A program made the position numbers and the translations under genes. From a virus (Duplodnaviria > Heunggongvirae > Uroviricota > Caudoviricetes), in IMG/VR virus record IMGVR_UViG_2711768072_000012: DNA of 10,030 bases; one strand, 5' to 3'. Positions 5,098-9,631 of the stretch are shown here, in pieces (position 1 is the first letter of the stretch; every line of letters starts with the position of its first letter). Under the pieces are notes generated by a model. It made no database searches. It saw nothing but the letters and a program-made list of their open reading frames with translations, and was not told the origin of the DNA.

Positions 5098-5112
5098 TTG
5101 CCGGAGGCGCTT

Positions 5113-5538
5113 ATGGCAAAAGTATTTACACAAGAAGAGCGGGAAAAAATTAAAGGGCAGGTTGTTGAACTTGTACGTCTGAGCGGTCGCGAGACGTTGC
5201 GGCAACTGGAAGCCAAGACAGGTGCGACAAGATATCTGATGAGTGTTCTCGCCAGAGAGCTGGTTGCCAGTGGCGATGTATACAACTCTGGTTACGGGTT
5301 ATTCCCGTCTGAACAGGCGCGTAAGGACTGGCAAAACGCCCGCAAAAAACTCTCAAGGGCAAATCTGAAGAAACCATCTGTGGTTGATCCGGACCTTATC
5401 TGGTCGTTACCAGACGGCGAAATACGCCGCTACGACAGGCGCCTGAATATAATCTGTCGCGAGTGCCGGAAGAGCGAAGCTATGCAGCGTGTACTGGCAT
5501 TTTATCAAGGAAATGTTAGGTATTTTAGACGTTACTAG
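5113..5538 (+). CDS. hypothetical prophage protein (141 aa)
   Basis: ATG at 5113 with GGAGG at 5102-5106 (6-nt spacer), 13 nt after the ydaW stop. Basic protein, no motif recognised. Confidence 0.55.
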   Translation: MAKVFTQEEREKIKGQVVELVRLSGRETLRQLEAKTGATRYLMSVLARELVASGDVYNSGYGLFPSEQARKDWQNARKKLSRANLKKPSVVDPDLIWSLPDGEIRRYDRRLNIICRECRKSEAMQRVLAFYQGNVRYFRRY

Positions 5539-5602
5539 ATTAAAGAGCATTAGTTCAGATGTGAATTGACATTTTCATGGCGCAGGGTAGAGCCAGCGTG
5601 GT

Positions 5603-5628
5603 TGTCCGCTTTGTGCCAGAAGCGGACA
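5603..5628. repeat. Hairpin (arms GTCCGCTT / AAGCGGAC) upstream of the NUDIX-HAD pair
   Basis: Perfect 8-9 bp inverted repeat at 5604-5611 / 5620-5627 with an 8-nt loop. The same arm sequence recurs at 7070-7093. Confidence 0.5.
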
Positions 5629-5702
5629 TAGCAGGTGCCAGATGCATTTGTTATTCTTCATTGAATTGAGCAGTATCCTTAACAGGAACTCTAAATACAT
5701 AA

Positions 5703-6341
5703 ATGAAGATGAAAAACATGTCTGAAGTGTTGACCCAAGAAAAGCTTATTTTTGTTGCCCAGAGACTAAAGGCCCTCGCGCAGTCAGGCCTGACCTATTC
5801 AAAAGACGTCTTTGACAAGGAACGCTATGAAGCCTTGCGTGAAATTGCCGCTGGACTGCTGAGTTCGCAGTTTGATATTAGCCGCAATGATTTGTTTCAT
5901 GTATCGGAAACGGGTTACGCGACGCCCAAAACAGATGTGCGTGCGTTTATCCTGCGTAATAATCGTATTCTGATGGTGAAAGAGGCTGCAGATGGATTAT
6001 GGAGTCTTCCTGGCGGATGGGCAGATGTTGGAGATACACCTTCTGAAGCTGTGCGTCGAGAGGTCGAAGAAGAAACCGGATTAAAAGTCAGAGTGACTAA
6101 ACTATTGGGAGTTTGGGATCGTAATCTTCACGGCCATCCGCCTTTACCCTGGCATGTTTACAAGCTGATTTTTCTCTGTGAAGAAGTAGGTGGCAGCCTG
6201 TCAATCAGCCATGAGTCACTCGATGCTGATTTTTTTGATGTCAACGACCTGCCTGAATTGTCGCTTTCAAGAATTGTGCCTGAGCAGATTGCTGTCAGCC
6301 TGAGAGTAGCGAAAGGTGATGAAAAAACATGGTTTGATTAA
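5703..6341 (+). CDS. NUDIX hydrolase with N-terminal extension
   Basis: Nudix box GGWADVGDTPSEAVRREVEEETGL fits Gx5[E/D]x7REUxEExGU with D at the first acidic position. An ~80-aa N-terminal domain precedes it. Start is ambiguous between ATG 5703, 5709 and 5718; SD is weak and the upstream region is AT-rich. Confidence 0.8.
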   Translation: MKMKNMSEVLTQEKLIFVAQRLKALAQSGLTYSKDVFDKERYEALREIAAGLLSSQFDISRNDLFHVSETGYATPKTDVRAFILRNNRILMVKEAADGLWSLPGGWADVGDTPSEAVRREVEEETGLKVRVTKLLGVWDRNLHGHPPLPWHVYKLIFLCEEVGGSLSISHESLDADFFDVNDLPELSLSRIVPEQIAVSLRVAKGDEKTWFD

Positions 6342-6370
6342 CTTTCTTCTGCAACCATTAAGGAATGGCA

Positions 6371-7009
6371 ATGATATTCAACGCTAAGGGTTTTTTATTC
6401 GATATGGACGGTACGCTGGTTGATTCAACAGCCGTAGTGGAAAGCGTCTGGAGAGATTTTTGTGCAGAATACGGTCTTGATACTCAGGCTGTGATTGCTT
6501 ACGCACACGGGCGGCAAACGATTGATACACTGACGCATTTTATTGGTGCAGGTGAGAAAACCAATAAAATCGCGGCCTCACTCGAAGAGGTTGAAATCAA
6601 CACGACAGAAGGCGTTACTGAAGTAAAGGGGGCCGCTGCACTCTTATCAAAACTGCCACCGGATAGCTGGGCACTTGTCACTTCTGCAGGCAGAATGCTT
6701 GCCGAAAACAGGATGAAAGCGGCTAATCTCCCCTTACCCATAGTAATGGTGTGTGCAGAAGATGTAATGACGGGAAAACCAAGTCCCGAGGGTTACATCA
6801 AAGCAGCTTTGGCTTTGGGCCTTGAGCCTGGTGAATGCGTGGTATTTGAGGATGCATCTGCGGGTATAAAAGCAGGGCTGGCAAGTGGAGCTTCGGTAAT
6901 AGCTGTTCAGCCTGACGCTCTGGGATCATCTGAAGCCCATGCCGTCAGCGAACTGTCTGACATTATGGTCAAGATTTCCGGAGAACGTTTCAATATCATC
7001 TGTGGTTAA
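6371..7009 (+). CDS. HAD-superfamily hydrolase (beta-phosphoglucomutase/phosphatase-like)
   Basis: HAD motifs: FDMDGTLVDS (motif I), VTSAG, TGKPSPEGY (Lys motif) and FEDASAGIKAGLASGA. ATG 6371 is preferred because AAGGA at 6360-6364 gives a 6-nt spacer; the track start is 6365. Lies 23-29 nt after the NUDIX stop. Confidence 0.8.
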   Translation: MIFNAKGFLFDMDGTLVDSTAVVESVWRDFCAEYGLDTQAVIAYAHGRQTIDTLTHFIGAGEKTNKIAASLEEVEINTTEGVTEVKGAAALLSKLPPDSWALVTSAGRMLAENRMKAANLPLPIVMVCAEDVMTGKPSPEGYIKAALALGLEPGECVVFEDASAGIKAGLASGASVIAVQPDALGSSEAHAVSELSDIMVKISGERFNIICG

Positions 7010-7069
7010 TCACGTTACACAATACGCATCAATGGACGCTGAGTAGCTCGCGAGTTTTAAACTTCCAAC

Positions 7070-7093
7070 GTCCGCTTTTCGCTCAAAGCGGAC
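7070..7093. repeat. Hairpin (arms GTCCGCTTT / AAAGCGGAC) downstream of the HAD gene
   Basis: Perfect 9-bp inverted repeat with a 6-nt loop, and no U-tract. Shares its arm sequence with the hairpin at 5604-5627, and both are followed by a similar (A)TAG.AGGT tail. Confidence 0.5.
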
Positions 7094-7272
7094 TAGAAGG
7101 TTAGCTTGCGTCGGACTTGGCGTATTTAAAGAAGTGCTGGTGGTGACTGGTTGTTGTGTTCCATTTCTACAGAACAAAATCACAGAAACTATACCCAATA
7201 GTTGTATTGAATCACTGACGAGACAGCCTCATATTTATCAGGACTGGTGTACGTCCAATACAGGAGGTTGTG

Positions 7273-7362
7273 GTGCTGGTTCTCAAATGTGCGCTGGCTA
7301 TTGCTGCTGTAATGGCAATTTATTGCCTTGCTGTTGTTCTTATGGATCGCCTTTCTGATTGA
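7273..7362 (+). CDS. possible small hydrophobic peptide (~29 aa, GTG start)
   Basis: AGGAGG at 7263-7268 followed by GTG at 7270/7273. Encodes VLVLKCALAIAAVMAIYCLAVVLMDRLSD, a single predicted TM helix. The frame choice is uncertain. Confidence 0.2.
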   Translation: MLVLKCALAIAAVMAIYCLAVVLMDRLSD

Positions 7363-7369
7363 TTTCATA

Positions 7370-7398
7370 TTGGCGAGGTGACGGGAGTTAAGTAGAAT
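7370..7398 (+). promoter_or_regulatory. candidate hok mRNA promoter
   Basis: TTGGCG (7370-7375), a 17-nt spacer, then TAGAAT (7393-7398). The predicted 5' end near 7405 (GGGTGCTTGAGGC) resembles the hok mRNA 5' tac region and is complementary to the 3' segment at 7780-7792. Confidence 0.4.
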
Positions 7399-7439
7399 GG
7401 CTGCGGGTGCTTGAGGCTATCTGTCTCAGGCATGAACAC

Positions 7440-7530
7440 CAAAGGCAGATAGAGAAAAGCCCCAGTTAACATTACGCGTCCTGCAAGACGCTTAACATTA
7501 ATCTGAGGCCATATCTATGCTCTACACACG
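7440..7530 (-). ncRNA. sok: predicted Sok-like antisense RNA region (approximate bounds)
   Basis: Inferred only from hok/sok locus architecture: the antisense RNA is normally complementary to the mok leader and start. Minus strand around 7530-7560 has a weak TTGCCT-17-TAACCT promoter-like pair. Ends are not determined. Confidence 0.3.
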
Positions 7531-7729
7531 TAGGTTAGCCTCTTACGTGCCGAAAGGCAAGGAGAAGCAGGCTATGAAGCAGCAAAAGGCGATGCTAATC
7601 GCCCTGATCGTCATCTGTTTAACCGTCATTGTGACGGCACTGGTAACGAGGAAAGACCTCTGCGAGGTACGAATCCGAACCGGCCAGACGGAGGTCGCTG
7701 TCTTCACAGCTTACGAACCTGAGGAGTAA
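7517..7729 (+). CDS. mok: mok-like upstream reading frame, here in frame with hok
   Basis: ATG at 7517 opens a 70-codon frame that runs into and through hok in the same frame. The leader resembles the mok leader of hok/sok loci. Confidence 0.35.
   Translation: MLYTRRLASYVPKGKEKQAMKQQKAMLIALIVICLTVIVTALVTRKDLCEVRIRTGQTEVAVFTAYEPEE
7574..7729 (+). CDS. hok: Hok/Gef family type I toxin (51 aa)
   Basis: MKQQKAMLIALIVICLTVIVTALVTRKDLCEVRIRTGQTEVAVFTAYEPEE has the Hok TM segment and the conserved TRKxLCE...R.G..EVA.F.AYE pattern. By recollection it is closest to HokD/RelF. SD AAGGAG at 7559-7564 with a 9-nt spacer. Confidence 0.85.
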   Translation: MKQQKAMLIALIVICLTVIVTALVTRKDLCEVRIRTGQTEVAVFTAYEPEE

Positions 7730-7797
7730 GAGACCAGGCGAGGGAGAAATCCCTCGCCACCTCTGATGTGTCAGGCATCCTCAACGCACCCGCACTT

Positions 7798-7820
7798 AAC
7801 CCGCTTCGGCGGGTTTTTTA
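7798..7820 (+). terminator. intrinsic terminator (UUCG tetraloop hairpin + T6) ending the hok transcript
   Basis: TAACCCGCTTCGGCGGGTTTTTT: stem CCCGC/GCGGG, extendable to 7 bp, with a TTCG loop and six Ts. Confidence 0.7.
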
Positions 7821-7867
7821 TTGGTTGACAAAATTATGAATATGCACCAATATCTTGGTTGACAAAA
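7821..7867 (+). promoter_or_regulatory. Two direct copies of TTGGTTGACAAAA (each containing a TTGACA -35 hexamer): candidate promoter/operator of the downstream cassette
   Basis: Identical 13-mers at 7821-7833 and 7855-7867, 34 bp apart, between the hok terminator and the first cassette gene. Confidence 0.4.
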
Positions 7868-7902
7868 GTCGTTTTTTGCACGGATTAGGCGGAGAAGTGT
7901 CT

Positions 7903-8496
7903 ATGCAGAACCATCCATTCCCTTGGGAGTTCTTTCCTGAGTTAACAGAGGAGCGTTTAACCATTATAGCTGAGGAGTTGCTCAGGATACAGGATATTAC
8001 TCATGAGTTATTGTCATCGCCCTATGATGATAATTACACTCGTGGTGGTTGTACATTTGGGCGTCAGCGGCAGGCGTTGCTACAAATGTGCGTACGAAAG
8101 ACATATGACTGGTTAAGACTACTTAATCCTGGCATGGATCTTACGTTTTCAATTGGGAATGTCCCTATTCGTTTCTTTACTGATGACGCAGATAACCCCA
8201 AGAAACGCGGTTTTTTCAAAAGAAATGATGCTGATCGACTCTTTGAGTCAGAGGAGACTACTCCAACTATGCATCGCTTTGTGGTTGAAAAGCCTGAATT
8301 TGAAGGCGAGGGTGGTAGAGTCATTTTTAATGGCTATAACGTGTTTGGTGAGATCGTGTCAACTTGGACATATGGTGCGGACCGTGTTGTTATGCTGAAC
8401 TCTGTCGATGATGTACCTCCAGCACCGGTACCTATCGAACTAGAACCTATCAGTGCGTCTAAGACTGAGAAGGAAAAGAAACAAAATAGCAAATAG
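7903..8496 (+). CDS. uncharacterised protein (~197 aa), upstream partner of the HTH-peptidase; candidate effector/toxin
   Basis: ATG at 7903 with GGAG at 7891-7894 (8-nt spacer); the track's 7855 start is TTG inside the repeat. Acidic, no TM segment, no catalytic motif recognised, with a Pro/Lys-rich tail. Stop lies 10 nt before the next gene. Confidence 0.65.
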   Translation: MQNHPFPWEFFPELTEERLTIIAEELLRIQDITHELLSSPYDDNYTRGGCTFGRQRQALLQMCVRKTYDWLRLLNPGMDLTFSIGNVPIRFFTDDADNPKKRGFFKRNDADRLFESEETTPTMHRFVVEKPEFEGEGGRVIFNGYNVFGEIVSTWTYGADRVVMLNSVDDVPPAPVPIELEPISASKTEKEKKQNSK

Positions 8497-8506
8497 TGGG
8501 TGAAAT

Positions 8507-9628
8507 GTGTTTAACGGTACTAATTTAAGACTTGCTCGTCTGTATCACGAGCTATCTCTGGAGCAGGTTGCTGAGAAGGTTGAAAAAACACGCCAGTATG
8601 TACAGCGACTGGAGTCTGGTTCAGCTACTCCATCCCCAGAGCTTATAAATAAATTAGCCGAGGTTTTGCGCGTGAAGCCCGCCTTTTTCGAAGGGCAGGA
8701 ACATTCTCCTGTTAATGAAGAGATTGTACATTTTCGTAAACGCGCCTCGACAAGGATGTCAACGAAGCTATCAACACTCGCTAAGGCTGAGTTTTATCGT
8801 CGTTTTATTGATGTATTTGAAGATAACCTTAATTTGTCACCTGTTCGATTTCCTGAATTTCGTGTCCATACACAAGAAGATATCGAGCGAGCGGCAGAAA
8901 AATGTCGTATTGAGTGGGGCTTAGGCTTTGGCCCAATTGAAAATATGACTCGCCTTGCCGAGAAACTTGGGGCGTTTGTTACTTCATTTGACTCCGTTTC
9001 GGATGAAGTAGATGCACTGTCTGTTCCTCTGCGAAGGCCTTTTATTGTTCGAAATACAGCTAAAAATTCACCTTGTAGGCAACGCTTTGATATTGCTCAT
9101 GAGGTTGCCCATTTGATTCTTCATGAAGGAATTTCTACTGGGGATAGATTAACTGAATCCCAGGCAAACCGTTTTGCCTCTGCTCTGTTGCTTCCCAGAA
9201 CGTCGATGGCGAAATATTTTCCAAGACCTGTGGGGGGGAGGATAAATTGGCAGGGACTAAGCCAATTTAAGTTGACATGGAAAGTAAGTAAGGCTGCCAT
9301 TGTTTACAGGGCTCATCAATTAGGACTTTTGACTGATGAGCAGTACAGAACTGCATTTATGGGGTTGAAACGGAAAGGGGAAGCTATTGATGAAAAAGAA
9401 GATTATCTAATCCCTCATGAGCGTCCTGAGTTATTCCGTCGGGCTTTATCGTTTTTATTTGAAGAGTTAGGATACGACCCACAGCGTATAGCTGATGAAA
9501 TGGATATAGAAGTGGACATTTTTTATGAGTTAGTAGGAGATGATCTTCCTGCGGTTCATGAACTGCCAGGAAGTGGTGATGTTGTTTCACTACAATCTTA
9601 CCGAACTCTTAGAGGCAAAATTCACTAG
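8507..9628 (+). CDS. XRE-family HTH fused to ImmA/IrrE-type (M78, COG2856-like) zinc metallopeptidase (373 aa)
   Basis: N-terminal HTH (LSLEQVAEKVEKTRQYVQRLESGSATPSPELINKLAEVL). Zinc-binding HEVAH in IAHEVAHLILHE followed by ESQANRFASALLLP, the typical ImmA/IrrE signature. GTG start at 8507 with GGGTG upstream. Confidence 0.85.
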   Translation: MFNGTNLRLARLYHELSLEQVAEKVEKTRQYVQRLESGSATPSPELINKLAEVLRVKPAFFEGQEHSPVNEEIVHFRKRASTRMSTKLSTLAKAEFYRRFIDVFEDNLNLSPVRFPEFRVHTQEDIERAAEKCRIEWGLGFGPIENMTRLAEKLGAFVTSFDSVSDEVDALSVPLRRPFIVRNTAKNSPCRQRFDIAHEVAHLILHEGISTGDRLTESQANRFASALLLPRTSMAKYFPRPVGGRINWQGLSQFKLTWKVSKAAIVYRAHQLGLLTDEQYRTAFMGLKRKGEAIDEKEDYLIPHERPELFRRALSFLFEELGYDPQRIADEMDIEVDIFYELVGDDLPAVHELPGSGDVVSLQSYRTLRGKIH

Positions 9629-9631
9629 GCA

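Follow-up and report, generated by a model that had tools for sequence, protein, structure and literature searches.

The window analysed here, the whole stretch of 10,030 nt from the IMG/VR virus record IMGVR_UViG_2711768072_000012 (Caudoviricetes), belongs to a Rac-like lambdoid prophage of Escherichia coli. In its early-right region, genes for a YdaT-like protein, a replication initiator with a helix-turn-helix (HTH) domain, a DnaC-like protein, a DUF1627 protein and a DUF977 protein ('LygF/YdaW', 5098-5538) are followed by a cargo slot and then by hok/sok. In the window, this slot holds a NUDIX hydrolase gene, which weakly matches the PADLOC candidate PDC-S07 (6.6e-10), and a HAD-family phosphatase gene, and the pair is flanked by two hairpins (Table 1), which are the subject of this analysis. 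A preliminary description of the window had reported these hairpins as perfect inverted repeats with identical 8-bp arms and different loops, and the sequence bears this out. The pattern GTCCGCTT-N4-12-AAGCGGAC matches the window at the two hairpins only; for GTCCGCTT-N8-AAGCGGAC, 0 matches are expected by chance, none of 200 dinucleotide shuffles contained any, and half-sites with one mismatch occur elsewhere in the window at chance level. Scans for tRNA, tmRNA and Rfam families gave no match at the hairpins. Folded as RNA with their flanks, both reach -16 to -20 kcal/mol on either strand (z ~ -3), the right one effectively forming a 9-bp stem with a 6-nt loop, and a repeat search of the window returned a 46-nt inverted repeat, 72% complementary, that covers both hairpins.

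Table 1. Hairpin sites, cassette, cargo genes and flanks in the window, and loci of related arrangements mentioned in the text.
Feature	Coordinates or loci	Strand	Sequence or basis
Backbone module upstream of the left site, TGTGAAnTnACAT..ATGGCRCAGRGTARAGC..	5556..5603	+	Rac-like/P2-like alignment
Left (L-type) site, 24 nt; outer arm GTCCGCTT of the Rac-like backbone, inner arm AAGCGGAC of the cargo	5604..5627	.	GTCCGCTT 5604-5611, TGTGCCAG 5612-5619, AAGCGGAC 5620-5627
Mobile cargo cassette from spacer to spacer (maximum extent of the travelling DNA)	5612..7085	+	99.3% identity in P24C9 and 10W
Second hairpin with T-rich tail, terminator-like, cargo-borne	5628..5654	+	Terminator scan and fold; present in P24C9
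Cargo gene 1, NUDIX hydrolase with Nudix_N domain	5703..6341	+	PF00293 7.9e-19, PF12535 7.6e-18
Cargo gene 2, HAD-family phosphatase	6365..7009	+	PF13419 5.4e-22; annotated YfbT-like in P24C9
Right (R-type) site, inverted copy; inner arm GTCCGCTT of the cargo, outer arm AAGCGGAC of the backbone	7070..7093	.	GTCCGCTT 7070-7077, TTCGCTCA 7078-7085, AAGCGGAC 7086-7093
Rac-like backbone flank TAGAAGGTTAGCTTGCGTCGGACTT	7094..7118	+	Constant beside every cargo; not in P2-like phages (alignment)
3649-nt cassette	L329, L070, L102, L383, L422		
Exact phage 24-mer	L146, L154, L155, L198, L200, L201, L210, L214, L233 and others		
Composite R-linker-L joints	L244 398-7893 (Enterobacter sp. BRE11); L058, L073, L032, L169, L202		

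The loops of the two hairpins differ, yet reverse complementation of the right loop TTCGCTCA gives TGAGCGAA, which agrees with the left loop TGTGCCAG at 5/8 positions and fits the family spacer consensus TGNGYNAR. A scan of IMG/VR with the pattern GTCYGCTT-N8-AAGCRGAC gave at least 120 matches, and among the matches listed nearly all loops fit the oriented TGNGYNAR. The commonest layout around a cargo is (+)...(-), seen in 35 of 61 adjacent site pairs, and (-)(+) pairs 16-18 nt apart represent junctions between neighbouring cassettes. Read by their spacers, the two hairpins are inverted, not direct, copies of one asymmetric site, which replaces the direct-repeat framing of the preliminary description. 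The most economical description of this site is best written as 9-6-9, with GTCCGCTTT, followed by GTGCCA (left) or GAGCGA (right, inverted) and by RAAGCGGAC. The similar (A)TAG.AGGT tail noted previously behind each hairpin does not belong to the repeat, as the left copy is cargo and the right copy is backbone. Of the tails that follow the sites, ATAGCAGG on the left and TAGAAGGT on the right, the left one (ATAGCAGGTGCC) travels with the cargo, being identical in the P2-like phage P24C9, and the left tails of other cargos are unrelated to it; the right one (TAGAAGGTTAGC) is found beside every other cargo of the Rac-like backbone and is absent in P2-like phages. The similarity of the two is coincidental. 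The cargo-borne hairpin directly inside the left site also moves with the cassette.

In a megablast search against phage records, window positions 5604-7094 were found at 99.3% identity in the P2-like Peduovirus P24C9 and in phage 10W, and no homology to either was found outside this interval. In both phages, the NUDIX-HAD segment sits between G, a gene for tail-fibre assembly, and FI, the sheath gene, i.e., at the position of fun(Z) in P2, and the P24C9 sites match those of the window at 23/24 and 22/24 positions. The homology with P2-like phages thus begins and ends at the hairpins, in support of the earlier suggestion that they could be recombination or cassette-boundary sites. P2 itself carries the sites around fun(Z), at 15335-15358 (left, GTCCACTC TGTGCCAA AAGCGGAC) and 17432-17455 (right, TTCCGCTT CTCGCTCA AAGGAAAC). 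Its left site (GTCCACTCTGTGCCAAAAGCGGAC) agrees with that of the window at 21/24 positions, and its right site shares the spacer CTCGCTCA. Furthermore, the search of related prophages for the motif at cargo boundaries, which had been proposed at the outset, found it around different cargos in both phage families. In four other Rac-like phages or prophages, the same sites enclose different cargo between DUF977 and hokD, including an FRG-domain protein, an HTH-cupin regulator with a GNAT acetyltransferase, and uncharacterised proteins. The flanks of the slot are present in 5005 of 5426 E. coli genomes, and the NUDIX-HAD cassette occurs in this context in only 18 genomes.

Inverted repeats around fun(Z) were described by Nilsson, Karlsson & Haggard-Ljungquist (2004, Mol Biol Evol 21:1), as reported in a review (PMC8987985), which also credits these authors with the interpretation of the locus as a place of site-specific exchange of non-essential genes. 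The hairpins of the window share with the repeats flanking P2 Z/fun both their sequence and a variable cargo that recurs between the same repeats. By this identity, the element in the window is that described for fun(Z) of P2-like phages, placed in a lambdoid slot with NUDIX-HAD cargo. It is the same sequence element, the cassette of the window sits at the fun(Z) locus in P24C9, and the role proposed here is, as far as the review conveys it, the same site-specific exchange of non-essential genes; the difference lies in the setting, which in the window is a Rac-like lambdoid prophage with the slot between DUF977/lygF and hok and a NUDIX-HAD cargo. Literature searches with the sequence string returned unrelated primers only, and the hotspot literature that was searched does not mention the hairpins.

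According to the preliminary description, occurrence of the motif at many unrelated intergenic sites would speak against a link with cargo boundaries. No such dispersal was seen in these phages: P2 and the Rac-like phage Tritos, scanned over their whole genomes, have exactly one site pair each, and the sites are absent from the other P2 hotspots (old/tin and orf30). In alphaproteobacterial chromosomes, on the other hand, related palindromes are abundant (see below).

The position of the joint between backbone and cargo was traced in a set of oriented sites (n=317, including two further anchored IMG/VR scans). About 25 cargo types were distinguished in the Rac-like slot, which runs from DUF977/lygF to hok, and some 59 in the P2-like slot; the 9 types common to both keep one orientation throughout with respect to L and R. 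The last base of the left outer arm is T in Rac-like phages; in P2-like phages it is C (50), A (8) or G (1). As the Rac-like anchored scan had T preset, IMG/VR was also searched in reverse for other bases: against at least 120 canonical sites of either kind, no Rac-like left site has a non-T and no P2-like left site has a T before TGTGCC. Similarly, for the right outer arm, 18/18 Rac-like cargo types have AAGCGGAC and 34/35 P2-like ones have AAGCAGAC, with position 5 being G and A, respectively. Spacer position 8 and the inner arm go with the cargo, being identical in both backbones for 9/9 shared types (e.g., TGTGCCAT-TACCGGAC, TGTGCCAG-GAGCGGAA and TGTGCCAA-CAGCGGAC). Position by position, conservation amounts to 97-100% in the outer arm and at spacer positions 1, 2, 4, 5 and 7; L (TGTGCCA) can be told from R (TGAGCGA) by positions 3 and 6, and variability sets in from position 8 on. 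The L and R spacer types are strictly conserved in both phage families. As far as these markers locate it, the junction of backbone and cargo is inside the hairpin, between outer-arm position 8 and spacer position 8.

Pairing of the arms is not kept to the same extent. Most P2-like sites contain a C·A mismatch, little of the right site of P2 is paired, and that of P24C9 reaches only -7.1 kcal/mol (z -1.5); the conserved feature is therefore the sequence of arm and spacer, not their pairing. In the window, no T-tract follows either hairpin and the terminator scan reported neither of them, in agreement with the earlier view that they are not classic terminators, and the terminator annotated for the V operon of P2 is located within the slot, 280 nt inward of the left site. 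A terminator or a purely structural RNA role is thus disfavoured, because pairing is lost, sequence is kept and the P2 terminator is located elsewhere in the slot. The identification of the sites as intrinsic terminators was rejected.

Additional information about the joint came from stacked cassettes. A cassette of 3649 nt precedes five different resident cassettes (984, 1582, 3042, 2195 and 1522 nt) in both phage families. It encodes a 667-aa BCCT-type (BetT-like) transporter and a 430-aa membrane protein, both identified by eye, and by the same inspection none of its open reading frames (ORFs) looks like a recombinase. It is flanked by two direct L sites with a duplicated spacer, in the order backbone arm, TGTGCCA, A-GAGCAGAC, cassette, GTCTGCTT, TGTGCCA, and the resident's own position 8 and inner arm. 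Its arms GTCTGCTT and GAGCAGAC are complementary at 7/8 positions by Watson-Crick pairs, with a T·G wobble next to the spacer, and both carry the matched T..A variant. This stack is the product expected from a circle GTCTGCTT-TGTGCCAA-GAGCAGAC that would have integrated within TGTGCCA. Further stacks have the arrangements L-L, R-R and R-linker-L.

The architecture of the site, the position of the joint, and the sharing and stacking of cassettes are observations. From comparison of the sequences, we propose as their mechanism, with a probability of roughly 0.6, conservative site-specific recombination, comprising cassette exchange via the heterospecific L and R sites and integration of circles at a single site. 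The two hairpins would act as attachment-type core sites on the left and right of a cargo slot; each has two inverted arms and a short asymmetric spacer, inside which the strands would be exchanged, with the backbone owning the outer arm and each cassette the inner one. L x L and R x R exchange between co-resident phages or prophages would swap a whole cassette, and a circular cassette with one site could integrate at L or R, stacking before the resident cassette. In this way, NUDIX-HAD could have come to be present both in the Rac-like prophage (DUF977/lygF-hok) and in P2-like phages (G-FI). The enzyme would presumably be a conservative, tyrosine-recombinase-like one, supplied in trans by host or phage; the layout of the sites, 8-8-8 or 9-6-9, agrees with that of tyrosine-recombinase core sites (inverted arms with a 6-8 bp asymmetric overlap).

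Several points weigh against this proposal. No recombinase was found in the cassettes examined, and clustering of the neighbouring proteins revealed neither a recombinase nor a transposase as a recurrent neighbour of the sites. To our knowledge, and as compared by eye, the site is unlike the Xer, lox/FRT, Hin/Gin and integron attC sequences. An 'empty' slot with a single hairpin gave 0 matches in IMG/VR for either backbone, and the typical cassette has inverted, non-identical sites, so that it could not be excised as a circle through L x R. Moreover, the support is wholly comparative, and much of the pattern could also result from short-homology recombination within the 24 bp.

The latter explanation, which we consider unlikely, dispenses with a dedicated enzyme: RecA, RecET or Red would cross over at palindromes that are kept for another reason and are the sole sequence common to the edges of different cargos ('linker' recombination). 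It would fit with the lack of a recombinase in the cassettes or recurrently beside the sites, with the RecE/RecT-type genes of Rac-like phages (exonuclease VIII in Tritos), and with a conserved block of 24 bp plus ~48 nt of partial homology on the left, a length that is near the minimum for homologous exchange. However, homology-driven joints or heteroduplex repair should sometimes carry markers across, whereas the base next to the spacer never crosses backbones in IMG/VR and the right-arm marker does so in 0-1 of 53 cargo types. It would furthermore require repeated exchanges within 7-15 nt for the five precise 3649-nt insertions with spacer duplication, and the strict L and R spacer types kept in both phage families also argue against it.

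We give even less credence to a REP-like role, i.e., that of an RNA or DNA structure resembling repetitive extragenic palindromes (REPs), which would serve as an mRNA 3' stabiliser, processing site or insulator around morons, with cargo edges coinciding only because recombinants that keep the hairpins survive. The hairpins are stable on both strands, each lies ~60-65 nt past a stop codon (lygF 5538, HAD 7009), and in Alphaproteobacteria the identical 24-mer is interspersed in high copy number in the manner of REPs, often clustered in tandem. Against this stand the loss of pairing in sites whose arm and spacer sequences are conserved, the lack of a T-tract and of an Rfam family, and the location of the P2 V-operon terminator elsewhere; joints inside the hairpin and stacked cassettes would be left unexplained. 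The sites do resemble REPs, bacterial interspersed mosaic elements (BIMEs), and the dRS3 repeats and intergenic mosaic elements (NIMEs) of Neisseria (PMC3733652), in that these are short palindromes in inverted pairs with conserved linkers at gene 3' ends; dRS3, whose layout is 6-N8-6, lies on either side of mosaic blocks (PMC3733652). They differ in lacking the GTAG/CGTC tag and a REP-associated tyrosine transposase (RAYT), and in occurring as one pair per E. coli phage rather than as hundreds of intergenic copies. A RAYT-associated REP/BIME identity was rejected, as there is no tag, one pair per phage genome, and no recurrent neighbour in 103 alphaproteobacterial-type loci; neither Bradyrhizobium Br-REP nor the GTAG/CGTC REP classes match the element.

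Neisseria dRS3 repeats are targets of an IS110-family recombinase. Their arm-N8-arm layout (ATTCCC-N8-GGGAAT, CGTC-1 family; PMC3733652), the inverted copies at the ends, and the 3649-nt cassette with its 8-bp inverted ends and apparent 7-8 bp target duplication could be taken for a transposon or miniature inverted-repeat transposable element with the hairpins as terminal inverted repeats and a transposase (RAYT/IS200-IS605-like or IS110-like) acting in trans, but this is very improbable, since simple transposition is excluded by outer arms that stay with the backbone, i.e., the outer half of each terminal repeat is immobile, and by flanks (GCGTGGTT vs TAGAAGGT) that show no direct duplication of a target beyond the hairpins, and each phage genome has one fixed slot without a transposase nearby.

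Known recombination systems provide parallels to the proposed site-specific exchange. In Acinetobacter plasmids, pdif modules carry cargo without a recombinase of its own between inverted XerC/XerD sites in unrelated backbones, although their mobilisation is unproven. The phage cassettes are alike in their discrete cargo, the lack of an own recombinase, the inverted arm-spacer-arm sites and the unrelated backbones. The dif site, however, is an unrelated sequence of 11-6-11 layout (GGTGCGCATAA-TGTATA-TTATGTTAAAT), its hosts are plasmids rather than phages, the phage sites have two heterospecific spacer types (L and R), and there is no evidence linking them to XerCD. A dif-like XerCD site (GGTGCGCATAA-N6-TTATGTTAAAT) was rejected after comparing window positions 5601-5631 by eye with dif; the XerC arm agrees at ~3/11 positions, and a TTATG motif is lacking. 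Integron cassettes share the small or promoterless cargo, the stacking, the insertion products that fit a circular intermediate, and imperfect palindromes that form hairpins; they differ in an attC of 55-140 nt compared to 24 nt for the phage site and in one attC per cassette instead of two inverted sites. An attC identity was likewise discarded, as neither site has R''/L''/L'/R' boxes or GTTRRRY and no intI or other integrase gene lies beside the slot. In engineered recombinase-mediated cassette exchange (lox/FRT, 13-8-13), inverted arms surround an asymmetric 6-8 bp spacer as well, and different spacers block excision, fix the orientation and permit exchange with a partner carrying the same pair. 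The phage system differs from it in being natural and in having shorter arms.

Variable hotspots of P2-like and lambdoid phages are now mined for anti-phage defence and accessory genes, and the sites described here suggest a concrete route by which cargo enters and leaves them. By a shared arm-spacer-arm site, unrelated temperate phages could trade complete cassettes with joints in a 6-7 nt spacer, which would account for the same moron in P2-like and Rac-like phages and points to a recombinase acting at the site. The site could also be used as a sequence tag for locating cargo slots and, possibly, as a natural tool for cassette exchange.

The element is not confined to phages. A scan of species-level genomes with GTCCGCTT-YGNRYNAR-AAGCGGAC, for which ~1 chance match is expected, found it mostly in Alphaproteobacteria among the matches listed (Pseudolabrys, Xanthobacteraceae, Rhizobium, Agrobacterium vitis, Hyphomicrobium, Henriciella and Azospirillum), with others in Pantoea, Klebsiella, Citrobacter, Mixta and Enterobacter. 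In Pseudolabrys, Xanthobacteraceae and further Alphaproteobacteria, the exact phage 24-mer GTCCGCTT TGTGCCAA AAGCGGAC is interspersed as a REP-like repeat, and close variants with the spacers TGGGTCAA and TGCGCCAA are abundant in Alphaproteobacteria as well. In a tandem cluster, ATGTCCGCTT-TGGGTCAA-AAGCGGACAT is followed after ~19 nt by a hairpin with an ACCCCCG loop and, after another ~19 nt, by GTCCGCTT-TGTGCCAA-AAGCGGAC. No Rfam family covers these alphaproteobacterial repeats, and no associated gene was found.

Arrays of cassettes appear to exist outside phages, too. In a metagenome-assembled genome of Henriciella sp. (L239, 1261-4044), five direct sites 500-1000 nt apart lie between three Pfam-matched ORFs (GNAT, alpha/beta hydrolase and DUF1801), with the shortest interval lacking an annotated gene, and a large serine recombinase gene is located ~3 kb from the sites, at 6912-8000. 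The layout looks like an integron array without intI and attC. In enteric bacteria including Enterobacter, (+)...(-) pairs bracket metabolic cassettes on contigs that do not look like phages, and the joint between cassettes in other Enterobacterales consists of an R-type hairpin, a conserved 16-18 nt linker (CTTTAGCTCAGTTACCTG-like) and an L-type hairpin. The cassettes of the Enterobacter sp. BRE11 locus (L244) seem to be metabolic, as judged from N-terminal sequences of ORFs resembling ABM, aldo-keto reductase, alcohol dehydrogenase (ADH), MFS and LysR proteins. Tentatively, the phage sites may be the enterobacterial tip of a wider, integron-like cassette system without intI and attC, served by a conserved trans-acting recombinase or a hairpin-specific enzyme, an idea that we regard as possible, with the odds against it. 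It is in the same tentative sense that cassettes might move among phages and chromosomes across Proteobacteria, with accessory arrays such as those of Henriciella and Enterobacter L244.

Sites with deviating features were found in other phages. In the Qin prophage of E. coli K-12, degenerate L- and R-type sites (L250, 4982-5005 and 5973-5996) flank flxA, the first of them inside the annotated ydfV ORF; relBE lies between the flxA unit and hokD, and the order of L and R relative to hok is the reverse of that in the window. A third lambdoid backbone (L007, L053, L056, L085 and L111; e.g., L056 3070-3093) has a left-type site with the spacer TGCATCAA or TGCGTCAA, and a group of 49 loci carries GTCCGCTT TGCGTCAA AACCAGAT. 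The left-type site of this backbone is followed by a 228-aa ORF with a CCAPCSGE motif, for which QueH-like is a guess, and no recognisable right partner site was found in it, so that these are apparently decayed or single sites. Furthermore, the GC-rich viral contigs L010, L035, L079, L092 and L101 contain site pairs 1489 nt apart with the spacers TCGGTCAG and CCGGCCAG. Pairs of this type are in direct orientation around small ORFs and belong to a different phage group, probably with a non-enteric host.

With respect to the flanks of the slot, the alignment showed that the module of ~48 nt upstream of the left site is common to both backbones (mean column identity of 81% over 74 columns) and revealed no homology between the Rac-like and P2-like backbones beyond the right site. 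In P2-like phages, the outer flanks AATCTGACA and TGTCAGATT lengthen the inverted repeat. From its sequence, the upstream module may be a decayed second hairpin plus linker, similar to the enterobacterial R-linker-L junction. Within the module, TGGCRCAGRG (window 5578-5587) is complementary, with G·U pairs, to the end of the left arm and the loop (5609-5618). The minimum-energy folds of P2 (L248 15309-15352) and Tritos use this pairing instead of the hairpin, and the fold of the window does without it. Its function as an RNA switch was considered and set aside, the complementarity being regarded instead as a remnant of a decayed inverted site. A weak sigma-70-like motif in the same region (TTGACA-16 nt-TAGAGC, ~5566-5593) was also discarded, as it lacks T6 of the -10 element and was missed by the scan of the window.

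Downstream of the slot, the hok/sok type I toxin-antitoxin system is supported by an Rfam match to sok at 7405-7579 (114.7 bits). It is followed by an isrK-like RNA (7738-7819), which at 31 bits remains under the gathering score, with a canonical terminator at 7798-7815, and by a direct repeat of 13 nt, TTGGTTGACAAAA, at 7821 and 7855. After hok/sok, a defence pair of the RosmerTA type was identified, consisting of RmrT (7855-8496; PADLOC 7.4e-93) and RmrA (8507-9628; HTH and M78 peptidase, 4.3e-201). Because of this pair, the stretch 5600-9630 can be regarded as a small accessory/defence island.

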